Shown: one piece after another, positions 1 through 41,734 of the stretch
How the letters are laid out: the number at the start of each line of letters is the position of its first letter
Position numbering within the stretch: the stretch's first letter is position 1
Source of the DNA: a virus
Lineage: Duplodnaviria > Caudoviricetes
Strand: one strand, 5' to 3'
DNA length: 41,857 nucleotides
Virus record (IMG/VR): IMGVR_UViG_3300009678_000032
Span: 1 to 41,857 of that record
The notes under the pieces: generated by a model
What the model was told of the DNA's origin: nothing
Databases searched by the model: none
The model's input: only the letters and a program-made list of their open reading frames with translations
Made by a program: the position numbers and the translations under genes

Positions 1-123
1 CCGCGGTCGCCTGGCCGGTGCGCCAGTCGCCGAGCTTGGCTCCGTGGCTCTGCCACAGGCCGCCCTGGCCGACATCGATGCCGGACTGTGCGCCAGCCAC
101 CGTGTTGGCCTGCTGCAGCCACG
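1..123. repeat. 123-bp direct terminal repeat, copy 1 (circular contig overlap)
   Basis: Identical to 41735-41857; joining the ends restores a continuous minus-strand ORF. Confidence 0.95.
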
Positions 124-559
124 GCATCAGGTTGTTGGCGTAGGTGAAGTAGCCCTTCTGCATCAGGTCGGCGGTGTTGTCGGAGACCGCCTGCAGATTG
201 TTCGACGAGGCGCTGAGCCCCATCGACGCCATGCGACGTTGGATTTCGTCGTTCGACCGGGTGAGACCGGTGCCGTAGGCGCCCGAGCTCTCGTAGGCCG
301 CGCGCGCCCGCGCCAGGCCTTCAGGACCGTTGGCGCCAGAGGCATCGGCGGCGGCGTCGTAGCCGCTCTTGGCGGTCGCCACCAGCGGCTCCCAGCGACC
401 GGTCGCAGTGTTGAAATACTGCGACGCCTTCTCGGTGCCCTCGGTGAGATATTTCGAGGCCTCGCCAAAGCCGGCGGCACGGGCGGCGCGCGCGTTGGCC
501 TCGGCCTCGAGTGCCGGCTCGCCAGTAAACAGTCCGGTCAGGTTGTCCCAAATACCCAT
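1..559 (-). CDS. DNA ejection/pilot protein (P22 gp7-like), 5' part; gene wraps the origin and ends at 41556 (245 aa in total)
   Basis: ATG at 559 (TGATG overlap with the upstream gene); MGIWDNLTGLFTGEPALEAEANARAARAAG... is Gly/Ala-rich; open across the join (559+179=738 nt); follows the tail hub and precedes two larger internal virion genes. Confidence 0.7.
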   Translation of the reverse strand, partial: MGIWDNLTGLFTGEPALEAEANARAARAAGFGEASKYLTEGTEKASQYFNTATGRWEPLVATAKSGYDAAADASGANGPEGLARARAAYESSGAYGTGLTRSNDEIQRRMASMGLSASSNNLQAVSDNTADLMQKGYFTYANNLMPWLQQANTVAGAQSGIDVGQGGLWQSHGAKLGDWRTGQATA

Positions 560-717
560 CACGGCACCTGTGCAAGTACGATGCGGAGGAGCGTCTCCAC
601 ACCCTTGAGGTAGCTGTACCACTCGGTCGTGAATGTGCCGTTCGGCCGCAGCACCGGCATCTCCGGCGGCGGGATCGGCGGCAGCTGCGGCGAAGTGATC
701 GGAAATTGCAGCGCCAT
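559..717 (-). CDS. small hypothetical virion-module protein (52 aa)
   Basis: MALQFPITSPQLPPIPPPEMPVLRPNGTFTTEWYSYLK...; TGATG coupling on both sides. Confidence 0.7.
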   Translation of the reverse strand: MALQFPITSPQLPPIPPPEMPVLRPNGTFTTEWYSYLKGVETLLRIVLAQVP

Positions 718-2192: not shown

Positions 2193-2204
2193 CTCATCCT
2201 CCCC

Positions 2205-2573
2205 TCAGAAATAATCCGGCACCTGCGGCACGTAGGCCGGGCCGGAGTTTTTTATCGCGCGCAGCCGGTTCTCCGGCGAGAACGGGCTATCCTCCTTGGC
2301 GAACATCGCCTCGGTCTCCTCATTGGAGATCGAGAACTTGTTCGCCATCATCCGCGCCAATGCCTGGCTGAGCGCAGTGAGATACTCAGCCGGAATGGCA
2401 TCGGCATCGGCGATCGGCACGATGTGGCGCGCCGCCAGCTCCTTCAGCGCGCTGTCGAGGCTCTTGTCGACCGTATCGATCTCGGAGGCGGCGGCGGGCT
2501 GGCCGGCAGCCGTCACCTTGAGCTCCTCGAGGATCTCGAGCACCAGGCGGTTGCGATCGACATAGGCCTCCAT
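2205..2573 (-). CDS. head-to-tail adaptor (P22 gp4-like)
   Basis: 122-aa helical protein (ILEELKVTAAGQP..., ends VPDYF) between the capsid genes and the hub. Confidence 0.7.
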   Translation of the reverse strand: MEAYVDRNRLVLEILEELKVTAAGQPAAASEIDTVDKSLDSALKELAARHIVPIADADAIPAEYLTALSQALARMMANKFSISNEETEAMFAKEDSPFSPENRLRAIKNSGPAYVPQVPDYF

Positions 2574-2576
2574 GGC

Positions 2577-2975: not shown

Positions 2976-3007
2976 CGAGACCTCCCGTTCGTGACGGCGG
3001 AATGCCG

Positions 3008-3388: not shown

Positions 3389-3415
3389 CTGCGATCTCCT
3401 TGCGATGTGAGGGGT

Positions 3416-3437
3416 CGGGGCCGCATGCGCGGCCCCG
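3416..3437 (-). terminator. GC hairpin after the major capsid gene (terminator or mRNA stabiliser)
   Basis: CGGGGCCGC-atgc-GCGGCCCCG; no U-tract, so function is uncertain. Confidence 0.4.
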
Positions 3438-3445
3438 TAGAGATC

Positions 3446-4600
3446 TTAGATCGCGGACGCGGCGAAGAACCCGGTGACCACGCCCCACTGCTTGAGGACG
3501 GAGGTGGTCTTGGGGTGCTTCTTGAACACCTTGCCGACGCCGTAGCACATCTCGATGCCCGAGCCGGTGACGAACTGGTAGTCGTCCTCCTTCAGGAACG
3601 TCGGACGCGCCATCTGGCCCCAGCCCATCGCGACGGCTGACTGGCCGCACAGGAACACCGGGTGCGCAAGCACGGCGCTGCCGTTGGTGAGGTTGGCGTT
3701 CCAGGGGCCACCGGCCGTGACGTACGGGTCGATGTCCGGGATCTCCCTCGCGATCACGCCGTCGTACACCAAATCTCCGTCCTGGAAGATCGGGTTGTCG
3801 TTCATGCCGCGGCCTTCGCGGGGCCGGGCATCCTTGTTGACGAGCTTGAGATCCTCCTTGAGATCGCGGAAGCACAAGCCGTCGACGAAGGCCACGAAAT
3901 ACTCGCGGCCGTCCTCGATCTTGAATGGACGGATGCGCGGGTTGGCCTGCTTGGCGATGTACTTCATCAACGACAGCGCCTTGCCACTCAGCAGATCGGT
4001 GGTGGTGTCGAGCGTGTTGATGGCGGTCAGGAACGTGGTCGAGTAGTTCGCCTTGGTGGCGCCAAACAACACGCGATCGGCGTTGTCGGTCACCCAGGTG
4101 TTGCGCTGCGCGGCGCTCCCGGCCTCCCACAACAGGCCGTTGACGCGCTGACCGTTGTCACTGGCCAGGCCGGCGGGTGCCGCCTCGACCGGGATTGCCA
4201 TCAGCGCCTCGATGATCTCGTCGCGCTGCAGCTCCTTGCCCCAGTCGCTCAGGAGAGGCTTGGCCTCGCCAAAACTGTCGGCGCTGTCGATCTGCTGCTG
4301 GTACTTGTTGGTCTTGACCGCGTTGCGGGCGAAATCGACGTAGAGCCGATAGCCGTAGTCGTCGATCGCCTCTTCGTTGTCGACCAGTTTGCCGGTTGAC
4401 CGCCCGACCGCACGCAGGCGGCTGACGAGCGGGATGTTCATCTGCTCGCCGCCCTTCTTGAGCTCGTTGCGGACGCGGATGATCGCCGTGATGCTCTCGC
4501 CCATGTACGGGCTGAACAGGTTCTCGCGAACGTATTCGCGATTGATCTGCTGGGTGTAGAGCGTGAGCTTATTGTTATTTTGAACTTCAGAGAGCGCCAT
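3446..4600 (-). CDS. major capsid protein (DUF4043 / N4-gp56-like, HK97 fold)
   Basis: 384 aa; REYVRENLFSPYMG, LVDNEEAID, NPIFQDGDLVYDGVI, FLCGQSAVAMGWG, EDDYQF; follows the scaffold gene. Confidence 0.9.
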   Translation of the reverse strand: MALSEVQNNNKLTLYTQQINREYVRENLFSPYMGESITAIIRVRNELKKGGEQMNIPLVSRLRAVGRSTGKLVDNEEAIDDYGYRLYVDFARNAVKTNKYQQQIDSADSFGEAKPLLSDWGKELQRDEIIEALMAIPVEAAPAGLASDNGQRVNGLLWEAGSAAQRNTWVTDNADRVLFGATKANYSTTFLTAINTLDTTTDLLSGKALSLMKYIAKQANPRIRPFKIEDGREYFVAFVDGLCFRDLKEDLKLVNKDARPREGRGMNDNPIFQDGDLVYDGVIAREIPDIDPYVTAGGPWNANLTNGSAVLAHPVFLCGQSAVAMGWGQMARPTFLKEDDYQFVTGSGIEMCYGVGKVFKKHPKTTSVLKQWGVVTGFFAASAI

Positions 4601-4770: not shown

Positions 4771-4772
4771 CA

Positions 4773-4800
4773 GCTATAACCAGAGTTCACATCAGATCAA
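4773..4800 (-). promoter_or_regulatory. putative sigma70 promoter for the capsid gene
   Basis: TTGATC-N16-TATAGC just upstream of the structured leader. Confidence 0.45.
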
Positions 4801-5939
4801 CGGCGCTGCCCTGATGCCGGCGGCGCCATTGCACCGCGGAAGAGATCGTTGTCGGAGAGCGAGACGCCGTGGCCGTAGTCGACCGTGCCACCGTTGGCGC
4901 CGCCGTCACCTGATGCGCCGCGCATGTTCGACAGCGACGGTGGCAGCACGACCTCGTGCCTGGCCTGCGATCGCGGCTGTTGCGGCTGCTGGCGGCCATT
5001 TGGTTGCTGCGGTGGCGGAGATCCTGCGGGAGGCAAGCCGCGCGCCTGGTTCTGCGCCGCCTCTACCGCGCGCGCCAGGAATTGTGGGTTGGCCAGCGCC
5101 GCCTCGAGCTGCCGCGCCATCCACTGCTGCGGATTGCCGCCGATCTCCTGCAAGACGCGCTGGTTGTTGTACCAGTTCATGATCCGCTCGCCGGGGTCGG
5201 GATCGTTGACCACCGATCGCGCGAAGTCCGGCGCCTGCCGGCCGGCCTCGAGGAAGGCATCGTAGGCCGCCTGGAAGTTGGCCTTGCCGACCTCGATCGC
5301 GGTCATGCGGAGATTGTTCTCCAGCATGACCGCGCGCAGTCCCTGGCTGAACTGCTCCTCCATGCCGCGTTGATAGCCCACCGGGTCAATCACGGGATCC
5401 GGCAGCTGTGGAGCCTGCTGCTGCGGCGCCTGCCGCTGCGGCGGCTGCGTCATCCGCTCGACCATCTGCAGCATGCGATCGTACTGTTGCTGCATGTTGG
5501 CGAGCTGCGCCTGGTGGCGCTCGGTCTGCTCCCGCATCCGCCAGGTGGGCACCATCGGCGGCTCTTGGCCGTCGGGGCCGAGGAGTTGCGGACCCCCCTG
5601 ATGACTTTGCCGGGGGTCTGCAACCCCTGCCTGGCCTTGGCGGGCGTTGTGGTCCGCGACCTGCTGCGGCGAGGCGAACTGGCCGCGCGAATTGCGCAGG
5701 CGGCCCTCAGCGTCGAGCTGCAGCTCGTCGGGGGGTGTCCCAGGCTCCGCGGCCGGTGGGACACCCTGCGGAGCGGACGGCAGACCGCCGGGTAGGGTGG
5801 GGTCGCCGCCCGCCTCCGCGGGGTCGGACGATGGCGCGGGAGCCTCCGGCGCCATCGCACCGCGGAACAATTCCTCGCTGGTTAGACCAACGTCCTCGGC
5901 CTCGCCCATTGGGGGGCCTCCGGCTGCTGCCATGTCCAC
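4797..5939 (-). CDS. capsid scaffolding protein
   Basis: Pro/Gln-rich; RNSRGQFA, MVPTWRMREQTER, PDPVIDPVGY, DPGERIMNWY, LPPSLSN; upstream of the capsid gene; GGAGAA RBS (start 5939 or 5933). Confidence 0.8.
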   Translation of the reverse strand: MDMAAAGGPPMGEAEDVGLTSEELFRGAMAPEAPAPSSDPAEAGGDPTLPGGLPSAPQGVPPAAEPGTPPDELQLDAEGRLRNSRGQFASPQQVADHNARQGQAGVADPRQSHQGGPQLLGPDGQEPPMVPTWRMREQTERHQAQLANMQQQYDRMLQMVERMTQPPQRQAPQQQAPQLPDPVIDPVGYQRGMEEQFSQGLRAVMLENNLRMTAIEVGKANFQAAYDAFLEAGRQAPDFARSVVNDPDPGERIMNWYNNQRVLQEIGGNPQQWMARQLEAALANPQFLARAVEAAQNQARGLPPAGSPPPQQPNGRQQPQQPRSQARHEVVLPPSLSNMRGASGDGGANGGTVDYGHGVSLSDNDLFRGAMAPPASGQRR

Positions 5940-5947
5940 GTTCTCCG

Positions 5948-5967
5948 GTGATTTGCCGGCAAATTAC
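5948..5967. promoter_or_regulatory. palindrome just upstream of the scaffold RBS (candidate operator or hairpin)
   Basis: Perfect 14-bp ATTTGCCGGCAAAT at 5951-5964 within a near-perfect 20-mer. Confidence 0.4.
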
Positions 5968-6006
5968 TCCTGGAATGATTTGTTCACCATAGCCCTCAAT
6001 GAATGC

Positions 6007-6035
6007 TTGACAGGTCTCAACGTATCGTGTACATC
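6007..6035 (+). promoter_or_regulatory. sigma70 early promoter with operator-like spacer
   Basis: TTGACA-N17-TACATC; the spacer carries AACGTATCGTG, shared with other promoters. Confidence 0.75.
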
Positions 6036-6072
6036 AGCATTCATGTTGATGACGACAACAGGAGAGACCGAG

Positions 6073-6276
6073 ATGACCAGCCCGATCGATCGCATCTACA
6101 TCTTCGCCCTCGACGTCGAGCACAACGAGAGCACCCGCGTCGAGATCGTCGGGGCCGGCGGCCTCAGCGACGTCCGCTACAGCGACTTTGAGACCCGCGA
6201 CGAGGCCATCGCCTACGCCGAGCGCGTCGGCGGCTACTACGGCGCCCAAGTGGTCGAGCTGGAGCCAGCACAATGA
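6073..6276 (+). CDS. small early hypothetical protein (67 aa)
   Basis: AGGAGAG RBS; MTSPIDRIYIF...FETRDEAIAYAE. Confidence 0.75.
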   Translation: MTSPIDRIYIFALDVEHNESTRVEIVGAGGLSDVRYSDFETRDEAIAYAERVGGYYGAQVVELEPAQ

Positions 6277-6280
6277 CCGA

Positions 6281-6330
6281 CGGCACCGGCCGGGCAAACC
6301 CGCTCTTGAGCGGCGCATCCGGCCGGGCCG
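6281..6330 (+). other. intergenic stem-loop (possible RNA processing or stability element)
   Basis: CGGC-A-CCGGCCGG/CCGGCCGG-GCCG outer stem; inner CCGCT-CTTG-AGCGG. Confidence 0.45.
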
Positions 6331-6355
6331 CCACCACCCACGGAGGACCACGAGA

Positions 6356-6529
6356 ATGATCAAGGTAACCGTAGCCGGCCACGCCATCCTGACTGGCAAG
6401 GGCGGCGAGCTCGATCGCGAGCCGATCTATCGCGACGACGAGCACGCCATCCGGGAGGCCGTGCAGACCCTTGCCGCGCGCTGCACCATCGAGTTTGGCG
6501 ACGTCATCACCATCGACGTCGCGTTCTGA
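6356..6529 (+). CDS. small early hypothetical protein (57 aa)
   Basis: GGAGG RBS; MIKVTVAGHAILTGKGG... Confidence 0.7.
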   Translation: MIKVTVAGHAILTGKGGELDREPIYRDDEHAIREAVQTLAARCTIEFGDVITIDVAF

Positions 6530-6562
6530 CCACCCACCACCCACTAACCTGGAGGCCACACC

Positions 6563-6877
6563 ATGCGTGCCGTCAAGACCAAGCCCCGCGCCCTGCCGTT
6601 CTCGGTCGCGGCTACCGTCGACGCCCTTGGCGTCGTCAAGAGCGAGATCGCCTCGCTCGAGGCCGATGAGCAGCGCCTGCGGGCCCTGCTGATCTCGGCC
6701 GGCCCGGGCTCCTACAACGGAGACCTGTACGATGCCTCGGTCGCGATCGCCGAGCGCAACACCCTGGACATGGAGGCGGTGCGTGCCAAGCTAAGCCCCC
6801 AGTTCATCGCCGCGCACACGCGCACCAAGACCGTCGACATCGTCAAGGTGACGGCGCGCAAGGGAGGCGGCAAGTGA
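6563..6877 (+). CDS. early hypothetical protein (104 aa)
   Basis: GGAGG RBS; VDALGVVKSEIASLEADE coiled coil; LDMEAVRAKLSPQFIAAHT. Confidence 0.8.
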   Translation: MRAVKTKPRALPFSVAATVDALGVVKSEIASLEADEQRLRALLISAGPGSYNGDLYDASVAIAERNTLDMEAVRAKLSPQFIAAHTRTKTVDIVKVTARKGGGK

Positions 6878-6972
6878 TCAATCACTCGTTCGCCGAGGAC
6901 GTGGGGGCGGTCGTCGCCCTCACGCTCTTCCTAGCCACGATCGCCGTCTGGGCGATCATCCTGGGAGGCTGA
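6874..6972 (+). CDS. 32-aa single-TM membrane peptide
   Basis: GGGAGG RBS, GTGA overlap; MINHSFAEDVGAVVALTLFLATIAVWAIILGG; absent from the ORF track. Confidence 0.65.
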   Translation: MINHSFAEDVGAVVALTLFLATIAVWAIILGG

Positions 6973-6974
6973 CC

Positions 6975-7187
6975 ATGGAGTTCCTGTTCATCATCGTCGT
7001 CCTGGGCGCTGTCCTCTGGGCCTGGGGTCGATCCAGCGGTATCTCGATCAAGAGCTTTCATCCAATCCGACCGTGGCGGCCCCTGACGCCACCATCAATC
7101 CCGCCTGACAGCCTACTCGAGCGGCTGGCGCCGATCGGCTTTGTCCTCATCGCTGGTCTCGCCTGGGCGATCGGGGTGCTGCCGTGA
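6975..7187 (+). CDS. small membrane protein, two hydrophobic segments (70 aa)
   Basis: GGAGG RBS; hydrophobic N- and C-termini. Confidence 0.7.
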   Translation: MEFLFIIVVLGAVLWAWGRSSGISIKSFHPIRPWRPLTPPSIPPDSLLERLAPIGFVLIAGLAWAIGVLP

Positions 7188-7327
7188 CCACCGTCACGAT
7201 CACGCTGGTCGTCATCAGCGGCATCCTGCTGCTGATCGGCGCCGGCGTGTTCGTCCTGATCTGCTGGCTCGAGCACGACCAGAACAACCGCGACTACCCA
7301 CCACGCAAAGACCCACCACCAAAGTAG
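7184..7327 (+). CDS. 47-aa single-TM membrane protein
   Basis: GTGA overlap; MTTVTITLVVISGILLLIGAGVFVLICWLEHDQNNRDYPPRKDPPPK; absent from the ORF track. Confidence 0.65.
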   Translation: MTTVTITLVVISGILLLIGAGVFVLICWLEHDQNNRDYPPRKDPPPK

Positions 7328-7336
7328 GAGGCCACA

Positions 7337-7519
7337 GTGCAACGCTACATCGTTGAGATCCTGCCCCGCGGCGAGCACGCTTGGTGCCGCAACGGGCTCA
7401 CCTTTGACAGCCAGAAGGCGGCCGAGGAGTATGCCACCGAGCTCATGGCTCGCTGGTTTGGTGCCAGCCGCTTTCGGATCGTGCCGGCGCCGGGAGGTTG
7501 CGATGGCTGTGCTGGCTAG
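7337..7519 (+). CDS. small early hypothetical protein (60 aa)
   Basis: AGGAGG RBS; WCRNGLTFDSQKAAEEYATELMARW. Confidence 0.75.
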   Translation: MQRYIVEILPRGEHAWCRNGLTFDSQKAAEEYATELMARWFGASRFRIVPAPGGCDGCAG

Positions 7520-7733
7520 TATCACCCCGCTCGGCGGTCTCACCAGCGCAGAGCCTGTGCTCTCCGCTGAGGACATCCGCCGGATCAGGCTCGAGCTGCA
7601 GGATCTCGTCGAGGCGATCGGTCCCCGTGACGCCATGGGGATCGTCAACCTCGACTACCAGCAGCGCCACCGGATCGAGGCCTTCATCGAGTGGCTCGAG
7701 GATGCCTTCGGGCCAAACGAGATGGATGAATAA
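7503..7733 (+). CDS. small early hypothetical protein (76 aa)
   Basis: GGGAGG RBS before ATG 7503. Confidence 0.7.
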   Translation: MAVLASITPLGGLTSAEPVLSAEDIRRIRLELQDLVEAIGPRDAMGIVNLDYQQRHRIEAFIEWLEDAFGPNEMDE

Positions 7734-7790: not shown

Positions 7791-7898
7791 GCGCTGGTCC
7801 CGCCCACGGTCGAAGGCAATGCCCTAGGGGGACGCCGTCCCTGCACTGGGTGTGAGCAACGGGCCGTCCTTCAGTGGGTCAACGGGCGGGATCAGCGC
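7791..7898 (+). ncRNA. candidate structured small RNA
   Basis: 15-bp closing helix GCGCTGGTCCCGCCC (7791-7805)/GGGCGGGATCAGCGC (7884-7898) with a G-U on the + strand; internal stems ACGGTC/GGCCGT, GGGAC/GTCCC, GAAGG/CCTTC. Confidence 0.5.
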
Positions 7899-9727
7899 TC
7901 CTGGTACTCCAGGAGAGGCCCGGCCAGGCCGCCGGCGGCGATCGGGATCCCGAAATATCCAAACCCCGACGGATTGGGCCGCTTCTTGGTCGGCCGCAGG
8001 AACGCGCCCGGCACGTCCTCGCCCTCGGCGACCTTCTTGATCTTGTTCCCCTCCTTGTCGACCTTGGTGTAGTCCATGTGGCCGGAGGCGCGGTGCTCGC
8101 CCGCCACCTCGCGCAGCTGCTCCCGCGACATCGCCGGCATGCGCTCGAGCCCGGGGAACATGTTCTCGTGCGGCTCGTAGCGGCGCCGGATCCGGTCCCA
8201 GGTCATGTGCTGGCCGGCGAACACCCCGAGCCCATGCTCGGCCGCCCGCCGCCCGGTAGCATCGAGCGCCGCCTTGTAGTTGGGCCCCATCACCGAGACC
8301 GTCGCTGGCTCCTGCACCCAGTTGGCCTCGCGGAGATGCTCCGGCACCTTCGGGTTGAGGATACCCTCGCCGGAGTTGCTGCCCTTCTTGGGCGCCAGGC
8401 GGAGCTTGGGGTTGCGGGCATCGTTGACCAGGCCGAGCACCGCGTCGACGATGGCGCTCTCGGTGCCTGGCGTACGCTGCAGCTCGCCGAATGAACCGAC
8501 CGGCCGATCCGGGTTGTTCTTGTTCCAGAGCGCGATCAGGCGACCTTCCCAATCGGCTTGCTGGCCAGGCGAGGTGAACAGCGTGCCCTCGCGCAGCGCG
8601 TCCATGCCCATGTGCCGATCGATCGCCGACGTCATGGCCTTGGCCGGGTTCTCCCAGACCACGCCGAATGAGCCGGTTTTCATCGACAGCCCTGGCACCT
8701 GGGAGGCGATGCGCTCGGTCAGCTGCTGCCAGGTCTCGTCGCCCTGGCGCATGAAAAACGACGGATCCTGCTGGAACATCTTGGCGAGGTCGCTGATGCG
8801 GGTGTAGTCGCCCGAGCCTCTCACCCCCAGGCCGCCCTTGCCGGCCGCGTCCAGGCCGTAGCGCTGCGCGATCTTGGCGCTCTCCTCGAGCCGGCCGCCG
8901 GGGCCCTTCTGCGGGGCGATCGTGCCGAGCGGGATCGGCGACTGTGCCGCGAGATCCTGGATCAGTGCGGGATCTCGCGCCCGCAACCGCGAGGCTGCGA
9001 GCTGGTTGGGGAACAGCGGATTGTTGGGCGACGTCATGCCAAACGTCAGGCCGGACCAGGCGCGCTCCGGCGTCATCTGGTCGGGCGTCAGCGACGCCGA
9101 GAGCTTGCGCTGGATGTCAGCGTGCAGCGACGGGTCGACCCGCGACGGATCGATCGGGTTGGCCTTGTTGTGCAGCATGTCGAAGTAGGTGAACTTGCCC
9201 TCGGTCCCGCCCGGCACCTGGAACTCGCCGCCACCCTGCGCATACGGGTAGGTCTTGGGCTTGGTCAGCGGCCCCAGATTGGGCACGCCGGCGATGTCAC
9301 CCACGTCCGCGAATTCACCCGGCGTCCACTCCTTCGGCTGCTTGCCCTTGTAGGTGGTCGGGATGTCCTCGAGCGGGTTCATCGACCCGCGCAGGTTGGG
9401 ATTGCCATAGAGCATCGGCCCTTCGGTCGCCTTGCCGACGATCGCCGGCGCGTCAACAGAGCTCGCCGACTTGCCGACTTGCCGCGCCGACTTGCCGGCG
9501 CCCTTGGCCGCCGCCTTCGCGCCCTTGACCGCGGCACCGCCAGGCAGCACGCCGACGGCAGCATCCCACAGGAAGTCCTGGATCTCACGCTCGGTCAGCC
9601 GGCCGCGCAGCGCCTGCACCGCCTGCTGCAGCGGGTCGGTCACCACGCTCGAGATCCCGCGGCCGATCGTCTCGACGCCGCTCTGCGTCGGGTTAGGTGG
9701 CCTCAACGCGCTCCACGGATCAGCCAT
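7892..9727 (-). CDS. head-module protein with a putative HhH-GPD (Ogg2-like) DNA glycosylase/AP lyase domain (611 aa)
   Basis: HhH hairpin VPGLSMKTGSF followed by AIDRHM (Lys/Asp pair); GLTFGMTSPN and NYKAALDATGRRAAEHGLGVFAGQHMTW resemble Ogg2 N- and C-terminal helices. Confidence 0.7.
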   Translation of the reverse strand: MADPWSALRPPNPTQSGVETIGRGISSVVTDPLQQAVQALRGRLTEREIQDFLWDAAVGVLPGGAAVKGAKAAAKGAGKSARQVGKSASSVDAPAIVGKATEGPMLYGNPNLRGSMNPLEDIPTTYKGKQPKEWTPGEFADVGDIAGVPNLGPLTKPKTYPYAQGGGEFQVPGGTEGKFTYFDMLHNKANPIDPSRVDPSLHADIQRKLSASLTPDQMTPERAWSGLTFGMTSPNNPLFPNQLAASRLRARDPALIQDLAAQSPIPLGTIAPQKGPGGRLEESAKIAQRYGLDAAGKGGLGVRGSGDYTRISDLAKMFQQDPSFFMRQGDETWQQLTERIASQVPGLSMKTGSFGVVWENPAKAMTSAIDRHMGMDALREGTLFTSPGQQADWEGRLIALWNKNNPDRPVGSFGELQRTPGTESAIVDAVLGLVNDARNPKLRLAPKKGSNSGEGILNPKVPEHLREANWVQEPATVSVMGPNYKAALDATGRRAAEHGLGVFAGQHMTWDRIRRRYEPHENMFPGLERMPAMSREQLREVAGEHRASGHMDYTKVDKEGNKIKKVAEGEDVPGAFLRPTKKRPNPSGFGYFGIPIAAGGLAGPLLEYQER

Positions 9728-10833: not shown

Positions 10834-12960
10834 TTAGAACGGCGGCCGTGGCGGCTGGGGGCCGCCTGGCAGCGACGTCGGTGGTGGTCCTGGAGGCGGC
10901 CCTGGAGGTCGTGAAGGCCCTCCACCCGGTGGGCCTGACCCCATTGTCCCGGGTGGAGGCCCGGCGGGCCCGCCTGCGCCAATGGGAGGAGGCCCGCCGG
11001 GAGTTGGTAGTACACCGCCCGGGAGGCCACTCTCAGTCGGCAGACCACCAAATTGCTGCTCGTTCTCGAGATAGTCGCCCAGGCCGAGCGTTGCCTGGTC
11101 GAGCTGCGGCGCCAACGGGTGCCAGGCCATCGGGGCCTTGGTGAGGGCGTCGATCGCGTCCTTGATCGCCTTCGCCTTCTTGCCGGCAACCTCGGCCTCG
11201 GCATCCTCGATCGCAAGCTTTTTCAGCTCTTCCTTCTGCGGATCTGGCGCGTTCTCCTGCGCCAGTTTTTCCATCCACTTTTTCTTGATCTGTGGCGGCA
11301 GCTGCGAGAGCTCGATCATGAGCTCCGGCGGAATGTTGGCGCCCTTGCCGGCCAACGCCACCAGCTGGTCGAACGTGTCGATCTGCGTGGTGATGGTGTC
11401 GGCGCCTTCGTCGATGATGATGTTGACGTCGAGCTGCGCCACGTTGTTGACCATCATCGGACCCCGCATCGGGTCGACGCGCAGGCCGTTGATCTGCACC
11501 AGCTGGTCGTTGCCGTCGGGATCCGTCACCTTGATCCAGCGCTCCATCGTCCACCACTTCTTGAGCGCCAGGAACGTGTTGCGGTAAACCCGTAATTTCC
11601 AGTCCTTGAGGTCGATGATGTAGCTGCCGAGCTCGGCAATGCCGGCCTCCTGCAAGAGCTTGATGGCGCGGCCCGACTGCTCGCCGACCGTCTGGCCGAG
11701 GAGCTGCGGGTTGGGGCCAAAGTTGTCGATCTCCTTCTTGGCGTCCTCGAGGAATAGGAGCTGCCCCTGCATGTCAGCGAGCTGCCGGGCGTCGTCGAAC
11801 TCAGGCTTCTCGCTGTCCCACTCGATCACGCCGTCGGCTTTGATGCTCTCGCGCCTGACCTTCTCGACGTCGATCGAACCGCGGCGCGCCATCAGGCGCC
11901 GAGTGTTGAGGAGGTGCAGCGCCTTCGAATAGCGGTGGTTGATCTCGTCCTGGGTATCCTTCATGTCGCGGAAGAACCCGTAGCGATCACCATCGTGGTC
12001 GACGTACGCCGAGACCATGTGGAATTTGCTGATGGTCTTGTCGTCCTCGTCGACGAACGGGCTCACGCCCTCCATCAGCTTGACGCCGTACGTGTGCAGG
12101 CACCAGCGCCACTCGCCGTCCTTGAAGTACCATTGGTCGACCAGCCGGATCCTCTTCTGGTCGCTCGAGATCCACTTGACGCTGCGATCGTTGTCCTCGG
12201 CCAGCGCGGTGCCGGCCTCCATCGACATCGACCCCTGCAGCTCTTCGCTCTTCTCCGGCACGATCATCTTCGCGATCTCGAGGTCGACCCACTTTGAGGT
12301 GCCCTCGAACATCGCGTCGCCGAAATCAGGATCGAACGATCGCGGGTCGTAGAAGAACGTGTCGGTGTGAACCCGCGTCAGCGTGACGTCGTAGTCGTTG
12401 TTGCGCATCACCTTCAGGCCGAGCTCGATCCCGCCGATGCCCTCGCGCGCGGCGTCATTGGCAACCTTGGAACTGAGTGCCTCCCATCGGGAGTTGTCCA
12501 GCACGTAGCGGATGCACATGGTCGCGAGATCTGCATGCCCCTCGAACCGCGGCGTGCGAGCGTAGGCCTTGGGATCTTGGCGCATCCGCTCGACCAGACC
12601 GACCACGCCGTTGATCTTCTTCTTGACGCGGTTCTTGGTGACCTTGAGTTGATTGCGGGCCTTGAGCTTGCGCAGCTCGTCCGCGGTCCACTGGTCGCCG
12701 TGGTAGTAGTGGCGGCTCAGCCTCTTCTCGGCGACCTCCCAGTGCTTGACGTAGAGATACATCTCGTACTGCTTGCGCAGCTCGCCGATCGGCAGGAACC
12801 CATCCTCGCTGTCGGTGGCGGTCGGGTCGGTCTTGGTAGCTGCGAACGGCTCGCGTTGGCTCTGCAGCGTCGGCGGCATGCGCAGCGCCGAGGGGGCGAG
12901 GAATGGCATCTGGGAGCCGCCGGCGCCGACGTAACCGTACGCGCCCGGGCTGTCCATCAT
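10834..12960 (-). CDS. portal protein (P22-like) with a Pro/Gly-rich C-terminal tail
   Basis: YYHGDQWT, NRVKKKINGVVG, FFYDPRS, RYGFFRDMKDTQDEINHRYSK, QSGRAI; directly after TerL. Confidence 0.92.
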   Translation of the reverse strand: MMDSPGAYGYVGAGGSQMPFLAPSALRMPPTLQSQREPFAATKTDPTATDSEDGFLPIGELRKQYEMYLYVKHWEVAEKRLSRHYYHGDQWTADELRKLKARNQLKVTKNRVKKKINGVVGLVERMRQDPKAYARTPRFEGHADLATMCIRYVLDNSRWEALSSKVANDAAREGIGGIELGLKVMRNNDYDVTLTRVHTDTFFYDPRSFDPDFGDAMFEGTSKWVDLEIAKMIVPEKSEELQGSMSMEAGTALAEDNDRSVKWISSDQKRIRLVDQWYFKDGEWRWCLHTYGVKLMEGVSPFVDEDDKTISKFHMVSAYVDHDGDRYGFFRDMKDTQDEINHRYSKALHLLNTRRLMARRGSIDVEKVRRESIKADGVIEWDSEKPEFDDARQLADMQGQLLFLEDAKKEIDNFGPNPQLLGQTVGEQSGRAIKLLQEAGIAELGSYIIDLKDWKLRVYRNTFLALKKWWTMERWIKVTDPDGNDQLVQINGLRVDPMRGPMMVNNVAQLDVNIIIDEGADTITTQIDTFDQLVALAGKGANIPPELMIELSQLPPQIKKKWMEKLAQENAPDPQKEELKKLAIEDAEAEVAGKKAKAIKDAIDALTKAPMAWHPLAPQLDQATLGLGDYLENEQQFGGLPTESGLPGGVLPTPGGPPPIGAGGPAGPPPGTMGSGPPGGGPSRPPGPPPGPPPTSLPGGPQPPRPPF

Positions 12961-15895: not shown

Positions 15896-16519
15896 TTACG
15901 CAGTCTCCGCTGCTTGCTGCCTCTTACGCCGACGCCACGACAACGCGCCGAGGCCAGCGAGGCCTGACGCAAACAACAGCACCGCCGGTGGGATCGGCAC
16001 CGCGGTCACGAATGGCGTGATGCCGTTGGTGACGCTGAGCGACTGCGAGATCAGGTCGTAGTTGTTCTTGAGACCAAGCCAGAACACCTTGAAGTGACTG
16101 TCGTAGTCATCCAGGGTGAACCCGCTCAGCAGCGAGATCGTGAACGCCAGCTGCAGCTGACTGTCAGCAGGTAGTGGTGGCGCCGTTGGATCGACGTCCT
16201 TGTTAAAGCAGAAGAAGTTGCCGCTGCCGTTGCAGCCACTGGAGTTCAAGCCGCCCAGCTCCAGGGTGTAGCCCGGAGCCGTTGCAGTCGAGAACCCCTG
16301 TGGTAGCGCCCACGCAAAACTCTCAACACCAAACCGACCACCCTCCAGATCGCCGGCACCGTTGATGCCGCTGATGGTTAGAAGGAATGACGCCTCACTG
16401 TGCTCGGCGTTGGTATAGGCGCCGGTCAGAACGTAATTGACGCCCTGGAACGTCGCAGCTTGCGCCGGCAACGCCGCCAGTAAACCAAGCCCCGCCAGGG
16501 CTCCTAAACACTTGCGCAT
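15896..16519 (-). CDS. secreted VPLPA/PEP-CTERM sorting-domain protein (207 aa)
   Basis: Signal peptide MRKCLGALAGLGLLAALPAQA; C-terminal AVPIPPAVLLFASGLAGLGALSWRRRK (motif, TM helix, basic cluster); GAGAGGAG RBS. Confidence 0.88.
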   Translation of the reverse strand: MRKCLGALAGLGLLAALPAQAATFQGVNYVLTGAYTNAEHSEASFLLTISGINGAGDLEGGRFGVESFAWALPQGFSTATAPGYTLELGGLNSSGCNGSGNFFCFNKDVDPTAPPLPADSQLQLAFTISLLSGFTLDDYDSHFKVFWLGLKNNYDLISQSLSVTNGITPFVTAVPIPPAVLLFASGLAGLGALSWRRRKRQQAAETA

Positions 16520-16609
16520 TGAACGTAGTCTCCTCTCGTGGTGCCATCCACCAGGGGCGACCACAGCAGATCACGGCACCGCTGGCAATCAATATTTGAT
16601 GGATTAGAT

Positions 16610-16733: not shown

Positions 16734-17159
16734 CTAGCGGGTGACGTGTTTAACCGCCCACATGACCGCTTCCTCGATCTTGGTCTTGGCCAGCGACATC
16801 TCGCGTGAGCTGCCGACCGTGTCGCAATACTCCAGGAGCTCCAGGCCCATGTCCTTGATCGATTGCATCTGAGTTTTCTCAGCGTCGGTCAACACCCGGT
16901 ACTGGTGCCGCATCGTGTTGTTGACTGTGCGCTCGTCGCTCGTTGACGGGACGCTCTTGCTCTGCTCGCTCATAGATCTCTCCTCTTGCAGCTGCTGCTT
17001 GCGATACCTGCGATAGGCCCCGCTGATAGCACTCTCGGTGTAGGGCACGCGACGCCGATCGAGCTCGGCGAGGTGGACGCCGATCTTGGCATACCCCCAG
17101 GTCGGGTTGAGCGCCTTACAGATCGCGATCCGCTCGCCGCTGATCTTCCCCTGCGCCAT
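16734..17159 (-). CDS. HTH-like domain fused to an Acb2/Tad1-like sponge domain; internal start at 16973 gives a 79-aa sponge-only form
   Basis: C-terminal HQYRVLTDAEKTQMQSIKDMG...SREMSLAKTKIEEAVMWAVKHVT; RBS GAGGA before 17159 and GAGGAG before 16973. Confidence 0.75.
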   Translation of the reverse strand: MAQGKISGERIAICKALNPTWGYAKIGVHLAELDRRRVPYTESAISGAYRRYRKQQLQEERSMSEQSKSVPSTSDERTVNNTMRHQYRVLTDAEKTQMQSIKDMGLELLEYCDTVGSSREMSLAKTKIEEAVMWAVKHVTR

Positions 17160-18598: not shown

Positions 18599-18997
18599 TT
18601 ATTTCAGGATGTCGCAAAGGTTGATCAGCACAACGTCGCTGAGCTCACCGTCACCAGCGCTTGAGGCAACCTGGTCGGCGAGATAGGCGTCGCGCGCCAG
18701 CTTCTTGAGGCGGTCGATCGGGAACATCAGCCAGCACAAGGTCTCACCGTCGCGCCGGAGCTCATGCACCCACATATCGGCCTCGGTGACCGCAATGCCG
18801 GACGGTTGATCGTTCCACCTGTACTCGATGCAGATCCGACCGGTCTGCTCCCACTGCCAGGTCTCGCTCTTGAGTTCGATCTTCTCGAGCTTGGCGCCCT
18901 CAAAGATCGCACCGAGCGCGCGCTCGCGCTTGAGGCCTTCACTGAGTTGAAGGTCGAACTTTTTGCCGCCGTTGTAGGTGATCTTGTCTGCCATCAT
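18599..18997 (-). CDS. putative PD-(D/E)XK nuclease-fold protein
   Basis: KFDLQLSEG...KIELKSE...TGRICIEY...PSGIAVTEADMW; ExK motif; GAGG RBS. Confidence 0.55.
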   Translation of the reverse strand: MMADKITYNGGKKFDLQLSEGLKRERALGAIFEGAKLEKIELKSETWQWEQTGRICIEYRWNDQPSGIAVTEADMWVHELRRDGETLCWLMFPIDRLKKLARDAYLADQVASSAGDGELSDVVLINLCDILK

Positions 18998-21869: not shown

Positions 21870-23369
21870 TCATTGATCCAGGCCGGAAAACGCCTGCCGC
21901 ACATCGCCGTGCTTGATGGCTGATTTCAAGCGCCTTCCGAGCTCGACCTCTGTGATCCCATCGGCCCGCTCCCCAGGGTCGAGGTAGACCGACGGAACAT
22001 CAAATTCCAAGGGCATGAAGTGATCGCGGCCCGGCACGCTGATGCACACCCGATAGCCAGCCCAGTCGAACTCGCGCAGCCCACGAAAATGCGCCGGCAC
22101 CACAGCCCCGTCCTTGCGGACATGCGGTCGAACGATGTGGAACATGCGCTTTTTGGCGCCGGCATCGTTCAGGACAATATCGCGGTCTTGGAAGAAGTAG
22201 GACGCCCGCCGCGGGCTCAACCCAAACACCGCGGTGAGATCGCCCTTGCTGACCTCGACGCGCAGCATCGAATACGCTGCGAGCTCGACGTGCTGAACCG
22301 CGCTGCAGAACGTGTGACAGAGGTGCGTTTGTGGGTCTAATCCATACTGCCTCGACCACTCTTCGTATTCGTGCGGGATTTGCCAATCCCACCAAGGACC
22401 AATGTCGCCGTTCTCTTTGGTGCGCGTCTTAAGCACCCGCATGCGCGTGCCGTCATCACTGATCTGGATCGGGAATTCCTGTGGCCGCCCCCATTTCCAA
22501 CGGTTATGATGATCTACGTGATCCCACCAAACCGTCAGCACGTAGAGCTTGCCGCCGCGCGTCGGCTGCACCGTCCAGGGCATCCTTTTGACCCGACGAA
22601 AATACAGGAACTTGGGTTTTTGAACGCGACCCATGCCGGGGATATTTAGGCTCGCGGCCTCGTCGCGCGGGTTGGTGCCGTAAGCACAGCAACCAAACGC
22701 CGGCCAGTGATGTCTAAACCAGGCCGGCAGTACGATCTCTTTTTTCATTTGCTTGATTTCCGCTGCGGTCAGCTTGTGCGGCCTGTGCGGCGTCACGCCC
22801 ATGCTGTTGGTGGCGGCGTACGGGATCAGCGTTGCGCCCAACTGCTTGTAAAAACCGTAGGCCGCGGCATCGTGCTTGCGCATGCGCTCGAGGTAGACCC
22901 AGTAGCGATCCAACTGGTCGAGGATCGTGTCGCGAAAATTGAACTCGCCATAAAATTCAGCCTCCTCGTACAGCACACATTCGCCGTCGCCCTCGAGCCA
23001 TTCCCCCGCGATCGGGCGATCGTTGGGATCCTCGAAAACGTCCTCCACCGCCGGCGCTACAGGGCTCGCCGCGACGATCTTCGGCTGCAGTTTGTCCACA
23101 TGCTCGCGCTCGTGCTTGACCGGCTGCGGACCTTTCGGTTCGACGAACCTGTCATGGCGACGACGCGCACGCTCCAGCACTCGCCGCTGATGGCGATTTA
23201 CCGCCGGCGGTGGCGGTGGAATATCCATCGCCAGTAGCGGCGTGATGTCTGGCACTGGCACCACTTTCGGTGCCACCACCGGCACCACTTTTGGTGGCGG
23301 GGATGGCGGCCGTAGCCGCTCGACCAGCTGACGCCACCACCGGCGGATTGACTGCATAAGCATCGACAT
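21870..23369 (-). CDS. large hypothetical protein (about 499 aa) with His/Arg motif
   Basis: GGAGG RBS and own promoter; FHIVRPHVRKDG...HFRGLREF; Trp-rich. Confidence 0.75.
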   Translation of the reverse strand: MSMLMQSIRRWWRQLVERLRPPSPPPKVVPVVAPKVVPVPDITPLLAMDIPPPPPAVNRHQRRVLERARRRHDRFVEPKGPQPVKHEREHVDKLQPKIVAASPVAPAVEDVFEDPNDRPIAGEWLEGDGECVLYEEAEFYGEFNFRDTILDQLDRYWVYLERMRKHDAAAYGFYKQLGATLIPYAATNSMGVTPHRPHKLTAAEIKQMKKEIVLPAWFRHHWPAFGCCAYGTNPRDEAASLNIPGMGRVQKPKFLYFRRVKRMPWTVQPTRGGKLYVLTVWWDHVDHHNRWKWGRPQEFPIQISDDGTRMRVLKTRTKENGDIGPWWDWQIPHEYEEWSRQYGLDPQTHLCHTFCSAVQHVELAAYSMLRVEVSKGDLTAVFGLSPRRASYFFQDRDIVLNDAGAKKRMFHIVRPHVRKDGAVVPAHFRGLREFDWAGYRVCISVPGRDHFMPLEFDVPSVYLDPGERADGITEVELGRRLKSAIKHGDVRQAFSGLDQ

Positions 23370-23386
23370 GGCCTCCATTCAAGCCC

Positions 23387-23837: not shown

Positions 23838-24392
23838 TCAAGCCGGCACCCCTTGTGGCTCCACCCCATCGAAGGCACCAGGGTTAGTACGCCAGGTGTG
23901 GTAGCGGCAGTAGGGCGGCATCTTCTGCGAGGTGATCTCGCCGCAGAACAGCGTCAGCGTGCCGTTGTGGCCGGTCGGAAATCGGCACTGGTCGGCGCCG
24001 ATATTCCATAGCGTCCAGCTGCCATGCGGCGTGATCTCGAACGACATGCGGCCGTGGCTGCCGGGCTCGGGATCCTTGGGAGGGGGTGGTAGCGATCGTT
24101 GCATCCGTGGCCTCACGAGTTGTGGCGCGGACGACCCGCGCATGTGCGTCAACTTCTTCGCCGGCGACGGGTTTGCGATCGTCGCCCTCTTCTGATGGAG
24201 CGGCTGGAGCGGCCGCGGTGGTGTCGAGGCCTTGCGCATCACGATGCCGTTGCGGTGCGCGATCCCCATGATCGCGGAGCGCGTCATACCCGGGAAGAAC
24301 GCTGTAGCGATCTGGCCAGCCGACATGGTCGAGGCGTGCTCGCGGATGATGGCAATCCGCTCGTCGCTCCAGAACGGCTTGGGCGCCATCAA
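23838..24392 (-). CDS. gcrA: GcrA-family cell-cycle transcription regulator
   Basis: WSDERI...MSAGQIA...TRSAIMGIAHR N-domain; QCRFPTG...FCG...PYCRYH C-domain. Confidence 0.88.
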   Translation of the reverse strand: MMAPKPFWSDERIAIIREHASTMSAGQIATAFFPGMTRSAIMGIAHRNGIVMRKASTPPRPLQPLHQKRATIANPSPAKKLTHMRGSSAPQLVRPRMQRSLPPPPKDPEPGSHGRMSFEITPHGSWTLWNIGADQCRFPTGHNGTLTLFCGEITSQKMPPYCRYHTWRTNPGAFDGVEPQGVPA

Positions 24393-27257: not shown

Positions 27258-27498
27258 GCTCAGCATCCAGAGCCAGATCGCCGCGGCGGAATACGCCGGC
27301 GAATGTCTCAAAAAGTGGCACAGGCACGCAGTCAACGCGCGGCTGCAAAAACAAGACATCGCCGACCTCCAGGAGGCGCACTTCGCGTATGTGATCAGCA
27401 CGCTGCGGTGGTTCGAGCGCAACTCGGCCACGATCCGGGCGGCGCTCGAGCCGCTCGAGGCCAAGGCGGAGGAGCCCCATGAGCCGGACCCTGCCTGA
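27244..27498 (+). CDS. hypothetical protein
   Basis: GGAGG RBS; LSIQSQIAAAE...VISTLRWFERN. Confidence 0.7.
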   Translation: MAAAKLSIQSQIAAAEYAGECLKKWHRHAVNARLQKQDIADLQEAHFAYVISTLRWFERNSATIRAALEPLEAKAEEPHEPDPA

Positions 27499-27844
27499 AT
27501 GGATCGGTAAGACTGACGACACGCCGGTGCCCGATCGGGTGCGGCTGCGGGTGTTTGTCAAATACAACGGTCGCTGCCCGGCATGCTCCCGCGCGCTCCG
27601 CACTGGCCACTGGCAGCTCGACCACATCCAGCCCTTGATCAACGGCGGCGAGAACCGCGAGCGCAATCTGCAACCACTGTGTGAGGAACCATGCCACAGC
27701 GCAAAGACCGGAAAGGACGTCGCCGAGAAGGCTCGGACGTACTCCGTATTCAGCCGGCACGTCGGAGCAAGGCGCAAGCAGCGTTCGATCACCGGGTGGA
27801 GAAAATTCAACGGCGACTTGATACGCGCTCCCCGAGAGAGATAG
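27479..27844 (+). CDS. HNH endonuclease
   Basis: CPAC...LDHIQPLINGGENRERNLQPLCEEPCH. Confidence 0.9.
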   Translation: MSRTLPEWIGKTDDTPVPDRVRLRVFVKYNGRCPACSRALRTGHWQLDHIQPLINGGENRERNLQPLCEEPCHSAKTGKDVAEKARTYSVFSRHVGARRKQRSITGWRKFNGDLIRAPRER

Positions 27845-40237: not shown

Positions 40238-41559
40238 TATTGCTGGCCCCCCTGCCGCTTGGCGAGCTCGCCGCGGCGCGCGATCATCTCGAACACCGAC
40301 ATCAATTCCTCGACCCGTTGCAGCGCCTCTTGCGGGTTGGCGGCATCCAGCGACGGCAGCGATTTGCGCAGGATCTCGCGCTCCGGCTCGGTGATCTGGC
40401 CCTGGCCCTTCATCGCCTGGGCCCGCATCAGCTCGAGCTCGGTCAGCGCCGATCGCAGTGGATCGGTAATGAGCGGCGACTGGATCGGGTTGTTGTCGCC
40501 GGCGCCGAGGACGTCGAGCGCGCCGCGAGCGTATTTCAGGCCGGAGGTGACCAGCGGGTTGCCCCAGATTGGATGGATGTTGCCGGTCTTGGCCGCCTCC
40601 CGGAACAGCCGCTGCGCGGTGCGCGCCGCCGGCAGATACGGCTCGATCGCCTTGGCCGCCTCGATGTCCTTGATCTGTGTGTCGGCCTGCTTGCGATAAT
40701 ACTCCTTCTGGCGGGCGACCTCGATCTCGCGCTGCGATTTCATCGGCAGCTGTGGCGCATCCGATCGGGTGGGCGCCAGGTCGACACCGGTGGGCTGAGC
40801 GAACGCCTGGGCGACGTCTGGCGTCAGGTCGCTCTCGGCGCCGGCCACGCGCTGGATGCTGCCGCCCGGCATCGTGGTCGAGGGCTCGACCTCACTGCGC
40901 TTGGCGCCGTTGATCAGCCGCTGCGCGGTGCCGGGTGGCAACCGATAATGCTGCTCGAACTTGCCGGCATATTGCGGATTTTGCCGCAGCGTCTCGATCT
41001 CATCCTCACCCACCGTCACACCCGGCGCGACCTCGACCTGGCCGGCGCCAATGTCAGGCTGCGATGGTTGCGGCGCCGCGGCGGCCACCTGCGGCACCGA
41101 TGCTGGCGCGGATGATTGCGGCCGTGGGGTCGACTGCCCAGGCATCACCCGCGGCATGGGCGGCCCCTGCTCAACCTGGCCGGCTCGCGGACCGGTCAGC
41201 CAGCGCTTTTGGCCGCTCGATGGCCGCACGATGTACTCTTCGCCGGTGTTTGGATCCTCGCGCACCTGCGGCCGATCCTCGGCGCTCTGCTGGATGTCGA
41301 GGCCGCGCTCGCGCAGCCGGACATCGTCGGCATGATGCGACGCCGACTGGCCGAGCGACTGCTGGTGCATCGCCATCCTGGAGAGCTGCTGCGCCGCCGC
41401 CGGATCGATCGACATCAGCGCCAGCGCCGCCTTGCGGTAATCGCCTCCAGCGCCCTGGACGATGCTCTGGACGCGCCGCTTGTGGGCCTCGGCCACCCAT
41501 GGGTCGCCCAGGCCGCTGATAGTATCTGCGCTGATCTGCGGGATTGCTGCCATGGTCAT
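40237..41559 (-). CDS. internal virion / DNA ejection protein (about 440 aa)
   Basis: Start MTMAAIPQ (ATGA overlap); MKGQGQITEPEREIL motif; between the gp7-like and large ejection genes. Confidence 0.7.
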   Translation of the reverse strand: MTMAAIPQISADTISGLGDPWVAEAHKRRVQSIVQGAGGDYRKAALALMSIDPAAAQQLSRMAMHQQSLGQSASHHADDVRLRERGLDIQQSAEDRPQVREDPNTGEEYIVRPSSGQKRWLTGPRAGQVEQGPPMPRVMPGQSTPRPQSSAPASVPQVAAAAPQPSQPDIGAGQVEVAPGVTVGEDEIETLRQNPQYAGKFEQHYRLPPGTAQRLINGAKRSEVEPSTTMPGGSIQRVAGAESDLTPDVAQAFAQPTGVDLAPTRSDAPQLPMKSQREIEVARQKEYYRKQADTQIKDIEAAKAIEPYLPAARTAQRLFREAAKTGNIHPIWGNPLVTSGLKYARGALDVLGAGDNNPIQSPLITDPLRSALTELELMRAQAMKGQGQITEPEREILRKSLPSLDAANPQEALQRVEELMSVFEMIARRGELAKRQGGQQ

Positions 41560-41734
41560 GCGAACCAGTTGGTGCCCTTGCCGACCGCGCCGCCCTTGCT
41601 CGCAAAGTTGGCCAGCTCGCCTGAACCCGGCGCGATGATGTTGCCGGCGAGCTTGAGGCCACCCATGATGCCTTCGAACAGGTTCTTGCCGGCGCCGAGC
41701 TTGATGTCGCCCTCCTTGGAGTACGACGAGGCGT
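41556..41734 (-). CDS. DNA ejection/pilot protein, 3' part (continuation of 559->1)
   Basis: In frame across the circular junction; ends ...GKGTNWFA*; ATGA overlap with the next gene. Confidence 0.7.

Follow-up and report, generated by a model that had tools for sequence, protein, structure and literature searches.

A P22-like phage genome without GANTC sites and the purge of this CcrM target in many unrelated alphaproteobacterial phages

Introduction

Why does a G+C-rich phage genome hold not one copy of a motif that its composition predicts in well over a hundred places? The genome in question is the IMG/VR virus record IMGVR_UViG_3300009678_000032 (Duplodnaviria; Caudoviricetes), the whole of which, 41,857 bp, was analyzed here (the window), and the motif is GANTC, the site at which CcrM produces the N6-methyladenine (m6A) mark that is read by GcrA. 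A first-pass annotation, made by eye, had reported the apparent absence of GANTC from this DNA, which also encodes a GcrA, and had proposed strong selection, either for evasion of a GANTC-directed host defense or because the phage attacks or reads GANTC-marked host DNA while its own genome is immune; a predicted glycosylase, a PD-(D/E)XK protein, an HNH gene and the phage GcrA were named as candidate agents. We show that the absence is complete, that the same purge occurs in many unrelated alphaproteobacterial phages, and that the presence of these candidates does not account for it.

1-41857: complete genome of a P22-like podophage with zero GANTC (from counts and gene searches)

Results

Not one of the words GAATC, GACTC, GAGTC and GATTC occurs in the 41,857 bp (65.1% G+C), whereas 135 sites would be expected from base composition and 130 under an order-2 Markov model, so the first-pass estimate of about 130 sites at roughly 65% G+C was accurate, as was the impression that neighboring words are common (GANTG 129, GANTT 88 and GANTA 28 copies). 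The comparison of k-mer counts with Markov and codon-shuffled nulls that had been suggested has now been run and places GANTC far below both: synonymous-codon shuffling (300 shuffles of 38 coding sequences, 33.8 kb) yields 61.5 +/- 6.4 sites, with a minimum of 44. An observed-to-expected ratio (o/e) below 0.1 at an expectation above 15 marks site elimination of the kind seen in Type II-like avoidance, and GANTC falls in that range here. With complements included, only three 5-mers are absent from the genome, namely, GAATC, GACTC and GAAAC, the last of which the earlier inspection had missed; no bipartite, Type I-like word (3+N+3) with an expectation of at least 10 is absent. That chance, base composition or codon usage produced the zero is practically out of the question given the shuffle minimum and the Markov expectation, and because no point speaks in its favor, we reject this cause. 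Selection against GANTC in this genome is strong, as had been claimed.

The distribution of the trait was traced with two structural genes that serve as lineage markers.

3446-4600, minus strand: major capsid protein, marker of lineage and host (from capsid relatives)
10834-12960, minus strand: P22-like portal protein, second lineage marker (from Pfam and PHROGs matches and portal relatives)

Among 28 viral relatives of the capsid protein, GANTC-free loci (o/e <=0.06) make up eight of the ten at 62% identity or more and none of the 18 below that level. Capsid loci of at least 10 kb in bacterial assemblies, which are prophage-like, are GANTC-free at the same threshold in only 2 of 59 cases, and their median o/e of 0.34 is close to the roughly twofold depletion published for host chromosomes (PMC8919816; PMC3973325). 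The closest of these capsid relatives in bacterial assemblies (58-62% identity) come for the most part from records of Sinorhizobium, Neorhizobium, Mesorhizobium, Bradyrhizobiaceae and Chelatococcus, and because these fall mainly in Hyphomicrobiales, the host is probably a CcrM-bearing member of this order. The 26 metagenomic portal relatives of at least 8 kb comprise four at o/e <=0.04, a single one at 0.07 and a group of 21 between 0.32 and 0.64. In all, 320 loci of at least 8 kb, an overlapping and redundant set whose distribution is descriptive only, include 78 below 0.05; the distribution dips at 0.05-0.15 and has a second mode around 0.3-0.4.

This phage is not alone in having purged GANTC. 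In a control panel of 24 cultured alphaproteobacterial phages, hand-picked rather than random and represented by whole genomes or at least 40 kb each, eight have a GANTC o/e of 0.05 or less. Four of these are at zero in the stretches covered, namely, phiM5 (40 of 44 kb), Cd1 (40 of 42 kb), Percy (40 of 45 kb) and P106B (whole genome), and the other four, HTVC011P (1/95), Scott, KLEP18-1 and Lo5R7ANS, range from 0.01 to 0.05. These phages are drawn from the T7-like and other groups, so the trait is common to many unrelated alphaproteobacterial phages. In the same panel, CCWGG, a classic restriction site, has an o/e of 0.02 or less in eight of the 24.

GANTC-specific methylases recur among the alphaproteobacterial phages, in temperate as well as virulent ones (PMC5537653, PMC7139368); PhiLM21_p027 is an example (PMC5537653). 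We searched 48 genomes, 24 cultured and 24 uncultured (at least 90% complete, this genome included), with a profile of the phiLM21 enzyme and six homologs, the specificity of most of the homologs being assumed from the family. None of the nine genomes with a p027-like methylase is GANTC-free, compared to 16 of the 39 without one (Fisher p=0.02, uncorrected for kinship or lifestyle); this methylate-or-purge pattern suggests a pressure on unmethylated GANTC. In the present genome, neither a PF01555 nor a PhiLM21_p027-like methylase was found (other methylase families were not searched), nor was a tyrosine integrase (serine recombinases were not searched).

We then considered the genes that the first-pass annotation had linked to the loss. 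All four are real open reading frames (ORFs), and the assignments of GcrA, the HNH protein and the helix-hairpin-helix (HhH) fold of the glycosylase are supported, whereas the PD-(D/E)XK label depends on weak neighbors.

7892-9727, minus strand: predicted HhH DNA glycosylase/apurinic-apyrimidinic (AP) lyase of 611 amino acids, polyvalent-protein family (from a fold model and homologs)
23838-24392, minus strand: phage GcrA (PF07750, E 3e-15)
18599-18997, minus strand: phrog_13596 protein of 132 amino acids, likely PD-(D/E)XK fold, located after the primase (from PHROGs and weak neighbors)
27479-27844, plus strand: HNH endonuclease of the recombination module (PF01844)

The protein encoded at 7892-9727 has 83 close homologs and 298 representatives at E <=0.001, often within very long proteins (1,000-5,000 amino acids) of the polyvalent class, some of them with LPD23 or ART-PolyVal domains. 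It has no Pfam match, and a sequence search of the PDB was uninformative; among its atlas neighbors, PF23802 is present in 22-52% of members. The structure model (predicted local distance difference test score 83.5) displays the two-lobe helical HhH fold, and DNA glycosylases account for 23 of the top 25 rows of the fold comparison, the best match being Thermotoga maritima OGG (Z 12.2, root-mean-square deviation 3.5, 199 residues); Foldseek gave a weak match (E 0.47). K350 and D370, putative equivalents of Nth K120 and D138, are invariant across 69 homologs. From the fold match and this invariant pair, the protein is predicted to be a DNA glycosylase/AP lyase. The fold and, putatively, the Lys...Asp pair are shared with the HhH-GPD superfamily (OGG2, Nth) and with DUF7178-like phage proteins, but members of the present family are much larger and often embedded in polyvalent proteins. 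A role in hypermodification is not favored, as PaMx11 gp46 reached only Z 4.0; no hydroxymethylase or kinase was detected among the 50 ORFs scanned.

The glycosylase does not track the loss of GANTC. From 79 viral loci, 78 rows with a usable domain (this genome included) were grouped into 34 clusters. Once this genome and two loci shorter than 8 kb are set aside, GANTC-free carriers number 12 of 31; at 40% identity or more the fraction is 8/18, which is no enrichment over the 8/24 of the control panel (p=0.53). The GANTC-free state is scattered over a quick tree of the glycosylases, and one carrier, G018, combines a 50% identical glycosylase with a p027-like homolog of GANTC-type methylases and retains 152 of 248 expected sites. 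With no enrichment among carriers, and with depleted cultured phages that lack the family in the stretches covered, we reject the glycosylase as the cause. Single-sequence locus searches with the glycosylase and the helicase found nothing, and neither the glycosylase profile nor the slot proteins described below have a match in the covered parts of the 24 cultured phages.

In five of the eight GANTC-free loci of the capsid lineage, the position between portal and scaffold, which is occupied by the glycosylase here, holds a large protein with TSP..K..DxH-type motifs recognized by eye; in the other three, this slot is not covered by the available sequence. The slot is hypervariable, with differing proteins of 500-900 amino acids that have HhH-like motifs by eye and adjoin lysozyme-like and LPD23 proteins; it is possibly a swapped effector cassette. 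Hardly any relationship is seen among the slot proteins themselves or between them and the 7892-9727 family, and one relative, L025, has such a protein and yet keeps GANTC (o/e 0.53-0.59).

Slot proteins in relatives (motifs by eye):
L001, 389-1885
L002, 5120-6685
L007, 4026-6023
L008, 4072-6879
L020, 2-1168
L025, 16915-18756

The phage GcrA contains both the N-terminal helix-turn-helix and the C-terminal sigma70-binding domain and aligns to residues 3-147 of 7ye1, although it scores below the NCBIfam equivalog cut-off (48.9 versus 280 bits). In Caulobacter GcrA, N34 and I37 read the methylated adenine base and its methyl group, and the protein is impaired by K39A and by N34A/I37A (PMC5887438). 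In the corresponding helix of the phage protein, the m6A-pocket residues N34 and I37 and the backbone residue K39 are replaced (N34S, I37M and K39I in Caulobacter numbering) and the pocket residues R33 and G38 are kept, so that, judged by its sequence, this GcrA has lost the methyl-reading residues and is not predicted to retain a complete m6A pocket. In eight further phage GcrA proteins whose full helix was inspected, Asn34 is conserved. Among 50 records searched, 26 of them at least 90% complete, four have gcrA, and three of the four retain GANTC sites; the four gcrA-bearing PD-(D/E)XK loci likewise have a GANTC o/e of 0.18-0.36. The proposed link between gcrA and the absence of GANTC does not hold, and GcrA was discarded as its cause. 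The PD-(D/E)XK protein (atlas neighbors at 0.85-0.89) was dismissed because only 3 of 16 loci are GANTC-free, two of them near-identical, and the HNH protein because its homologs occur both in phages that retain GANTC (phiLM21 and G010, which have close homologs) and in those that are free of it (G031, L031). In the covered parts of the eight depleted cultured phages, no GcrA or HNH match was found, and PD-(D/E)XK matched weakly in HTVC011P alone.

The genome displays a second purge. GAAAC/GTTTC is absent against 36 expected, and GAAGC/GCTTC occurs 11 times against 83 expected under the Markov model; under the codon null, the respective counts are 0 against 27.5 and 9 against 78. The 11 survivors (positions 1059, 3517, 3869, 7981, 11805, 16768, 18700, 20296, 20323, 23506 and 31567) have no common flanking context. 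Among 316 loci, GAAAC falls to an o/e of 0.2 or less in a single one, with a portal 100% identical to the present one, which is probably the same phage; the next lowest value is 0.42, and the median across GANTC-free loci is 0.81. Thus, the GAAAC/GAAGC purge is private to this phage among those examined. On the opposite strand, the purged GTTTC and GCTTC are GATTC changed at the methylated adenine, but this may be a coincidence, as a rough estimate puts neighbors of this kind at about 1 in 20 of all five-mers. GAARC may instead be a strain-specific restriction site, or the second purge may stem from relaxed specificity of a GANTC-directed agent. The search for a close relative sharing this GcrA, in which a link to GAAAC could be tested, was negative. 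A private non-palindromic purge of other words occurs in G013/L025, the slot-protein-bearing relative (CCAAA 0/30 and ACAAA 0/13).

Discussion

The explanation that we favor, and regard as somewhat probable, is that the purge is an escape from an accessory host nuclease, or a similar defense, that acts on unmethylated GANTC and from which the host is shielded by its CcrM. The probable Hyphomicrobiales hosts would carry such a defense in a patchy manner, in some strains only, with CcrM methylation protecting the chromosome from it, whereas a non-integrating phage would stay unmethylated because its replication is too rapid and falls outside the brief period of CcrM activity. Two ways out would then be open to the phage, a GANTC methylase of its own or deletion of the sites, and this lineage would have taken the second. 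This scenario is supported by the loss of all of the roughly 130 sites, the two-mode distribution, the spread over unrelated phages, and the failure to find a methylase or an integrase. The methylase contrast, the host-like median of the prophage-like capsid relatives, the near-zero CCWGG levels in the cultured panel and the 6-bp palindromes missing from this genome also speak for it. The alternative of methylating or purging fits the general rule whereby complete site elimination, as opposed to a lowered count, characterizes Type II sites of non-temperate phages and fades when other protection is available (PMC6286503), and the authors of the pelagiphage study likewise suggested a defense behind GANTC depletion (PMC9516812). 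Of the two branches proposed at the outset, host defense therefore stands up better, and the weapon branch fails in the comparison, phages without the enzymes being equally depleted.

A number of observations weigh against escape from a host nuclease. PF09520, which we take to be the family holding HinfI, is absent from all 401 genomes searched in the probable host's order, other endonuclease folds not being searchable by specificity. Those CcrM homologs that were checked, on plasmids or in non-Alphaproteobacteria (52-66% identity; two non-alphaproteobacterial groups, 702 genomes), are orphans with no GANTC-type nuclease adjoining. CcrM itself is reportedly dispensable in Caulobacter. It is also regarded as an orphan methylase (PMC5537653, PMC3973325), and from the two points together it follows that there is no universal resident cutter, so that only an accessory agent would fit. 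An accessory nuclease alone also leaves the private GAAAC/GAAGC purge unexplained. Taken separately, neither the cultured (p=0.07) nor the uncultured half of the set (p=0.53) gives a significant methylase contrast, the uncultured half includes probable non-alphaproteobacterial phages, the integrase split alone is not significant (1/8 versus 7/16 GANTC-free, p=0.19), and G031 has an integrase yet zero GANTC. Finally, GATC sites restored in phiX174 had no detectable fitness cost (PMC5014478).

The loss could also have arisen with no nuclease at all, if duplex opening by CcrM, or GcrA and other readers bound to methylated GANTC, hindered lytic transcription or replication, so that lytic phages delete the sites while phage methylases serve regulation. 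This is the alternative to which we give most weight, although we consider it unlikely. Hosts are themselves depleted about twofold, the depletion tracking the methylated motif (PMC8919816, PMC3973325), GAWTC is depleted more strongly than GASTC in several relatives, a bias also known from Rhizobiales hosts (PMC8919816), the near universality of CcrM in the class matches the spread of the trait, and the searches made found no restriction enzyme; but such hindrance does not predict a bimodal distribution with a sharply set-off class at zero, 16 of the 24 cultured phages tolerate many sites, and the GANTC methylases of virulent phages (PMC5537653, PMC7139368) are hard to square with harmful methylation. 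The same methylases would be suicidal if the pressure came from a second, CcrM-free host whose modification-dependent (Type IV) enzymes restrict phage DNA methylated by CcrM, and this seems very improbable, the more so as CcrM is found in nearly all candidate hosts (PMC5537653), even though such restriction would favor site loss and Alphaproteobacteria do have Mrr-type enzymes (PMC8432527).

Unmethylated GANTC might, rather, be attacked by another phage, a prophage or lytic phage whose enzyme, possibly an HhH glycosylase like that at 7892-9727, spares the CcrM-methylated host. The invariance of the predicted catalytic pair, the methylase in the site-keeping G018, and the GANTC-free state of eight of the ten closest capsid relatives, five of those eight with a slot protein, would all agree with this idea, but the capsid lineage amounts to a single evolutionary event, the HhH likeness of the barely related slot proteins was judged by eye, L025 keeps its sites, and the glycosylase carriers are neither enriched nor clustered; we think it improbable. 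The view that the phage directs an enzyme or its GcrA at methylated GANTC in the host chromosome, to attack it or to read it, the site-free phage being immune, appears slightly less probable still. The HhH fold with its predicted catalytic pair intact would suit it, as would the fact that the purge of GTTTC and GCTTC strikes neighbors of GATTC at the very base read by the changed residues N34 and I37. Against it, there are GANTC-free cultured phages without the four candidates as well as carriers that keep their sites, G018 pairs the glycosylase with a methylase homolog, a GcrA with the same I37M replacement coexists with normal GAAAC in G006, and the changed GcrA residues predict weaker, not stronger, reading of methylated GANTC. 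An equally doubtful variant is a phage-borne reader or attacker of the CcrM mark with relaxed specificity, a re-tooled GcrA or the HhH glycosylase/lyase, acting on G(m6A/T/C)TTC in host or rival DNA; such specificity, if real, would explain why this phage alone purged GTTTC and GCTTC besides GANTC and would amount to a self/non-self system built upon the host epigenetic mark.

Escape from a defense keyed to unmethylated GANTC, the reading that we prefer, has several relatives among known cases. About half of 33 pelagiphages, whose host has an orphan CcrM, are GANTC-depleted, with no enzyme found (Seong et al. 2022, PMC9516812); the motif and the alphaproteobacterial host with an orphan CcrM are the same, whereas here the genome is that of a 65% G+C P22-like podophage of a probable Hyphomicrobiales host, with exactly zero sites and an extra GAAAC/GAAGC purge. 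Thus, the present genome is a fresh instance of a known trait. Restriction-site elimination (Rusinov et al. 2018, PMC6286503) is similar in that the site is palindromic with o/e below 0.1, no integrase or methylase is found and prophage-like relatives tend to host-like levels, but there the host enzyme is known, whereas here no cognate endonuclease was found; the main text of that paper makes no mention of GANTC. The literature that we searched, which mostly excluded subscription journals and did not extend to supplementary tables, names no GANTC-directed anti-phage nuclease in Alphaproteobacteria and, with the same reach, contains no description of the 7892-9727 glycosylase family; these phages may already figure in supplementary tables on site avoidance. 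For GATC avoidance in enterobacterial phages, PMC5014478 cites Deschavanne and Radman (1991). In phiX174 and enterobacterial GATC avoidance, the target of an orphan regulatory methylase is likewise wholly lost, and cutting of unmethylated sites by MutH has been proposed, with the cause unsettled (PMC5014478); mismatch repair, in contrast, does not depend on CcrM (PMC3973325), which leaves a MutH-type explanation without a known counterpart here. The CcrM-like methylases of phages share the motif and the host class and could be an alternative answer to the same pressure, but none was found here, and the papers that describe them see regulatory mimicry (PMC5537653, PMC7139368).

For this genome alone, the loss of GANTC is ordinary, and the wider pattern is what is useful. 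About a third of the sampled cultured alphaproteobacterial phages have purged the target of a methylase whose role is taken to be regulation alone, and others encode such a methylase themselves, a pattern that predicts an anti-phage activity using CcrM as a self mark, directly testable with the laboratory phages Percy, Cd1 and phiM5. The 7892-9727 glycosylase family, on its part, is a separate phage enzyme group in its own right.

Other features of the genome and minor observations

The record is complete, with direct terminal repeats and an estimated completeness of 100%.

1-123, no strand: terminal repeat of 123 bp, second copy at 41735-41857 (sequence repeat)

A Pfam and PHROGs scan of 50 ORFs identified a P22-like portal, terminase, capsid, primase, helicase, RecT, amidase, an Acb2/Tad1-like protein, HNH and GcrA. 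There is no match at the DNA level, or to the glycosylase, among cultured phages, and a PADLOC scan returned weak HNH matches only. The Acb2/Tad1-like nucleotide sponge domain (16734-17159, minus strand; PF24729, E 1e-19) is C-terminal in a longer ORF and represents an anti-defense gene; nearby, a PEP-CTERM-like surface protein (15896-16564, minus strand) has weak NCBIfam matches, below the cut-off. Adjoining gcrA is an ORF of 502 amino acids (21870-23378, minus strand) with no Pfam, PHROGs, NCBIfam or PADLOC match and no homolog among the relative loci compared. Small genes on the opposite strand (5932-7733, plus strand) sit between the scaffold and the glycosylase; homologs of one of them, 6563-6877, occur only in genomes with a GANTC o/e of 0.12 or less, in four independent groups, too few to weigh.

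Full-length CcrM homologs (52-57% identity) with no nuclease adjoining are present in three loci of non-Alphaproteobacteria, L380, L382 and L383. Several 6-bp palindromes are also missing from the present genome, ACGCGT, CACGTG and TCCGGA among them. Near-total loss of many 6-bp palindromes is seen in G018, G021, G025 and G030 (loci L128-L131, L134-L136, L141-L143 and L148-L151), and CCWGG is at zero in G018 (0/232), G025 (0/163) and G030 (0/251).

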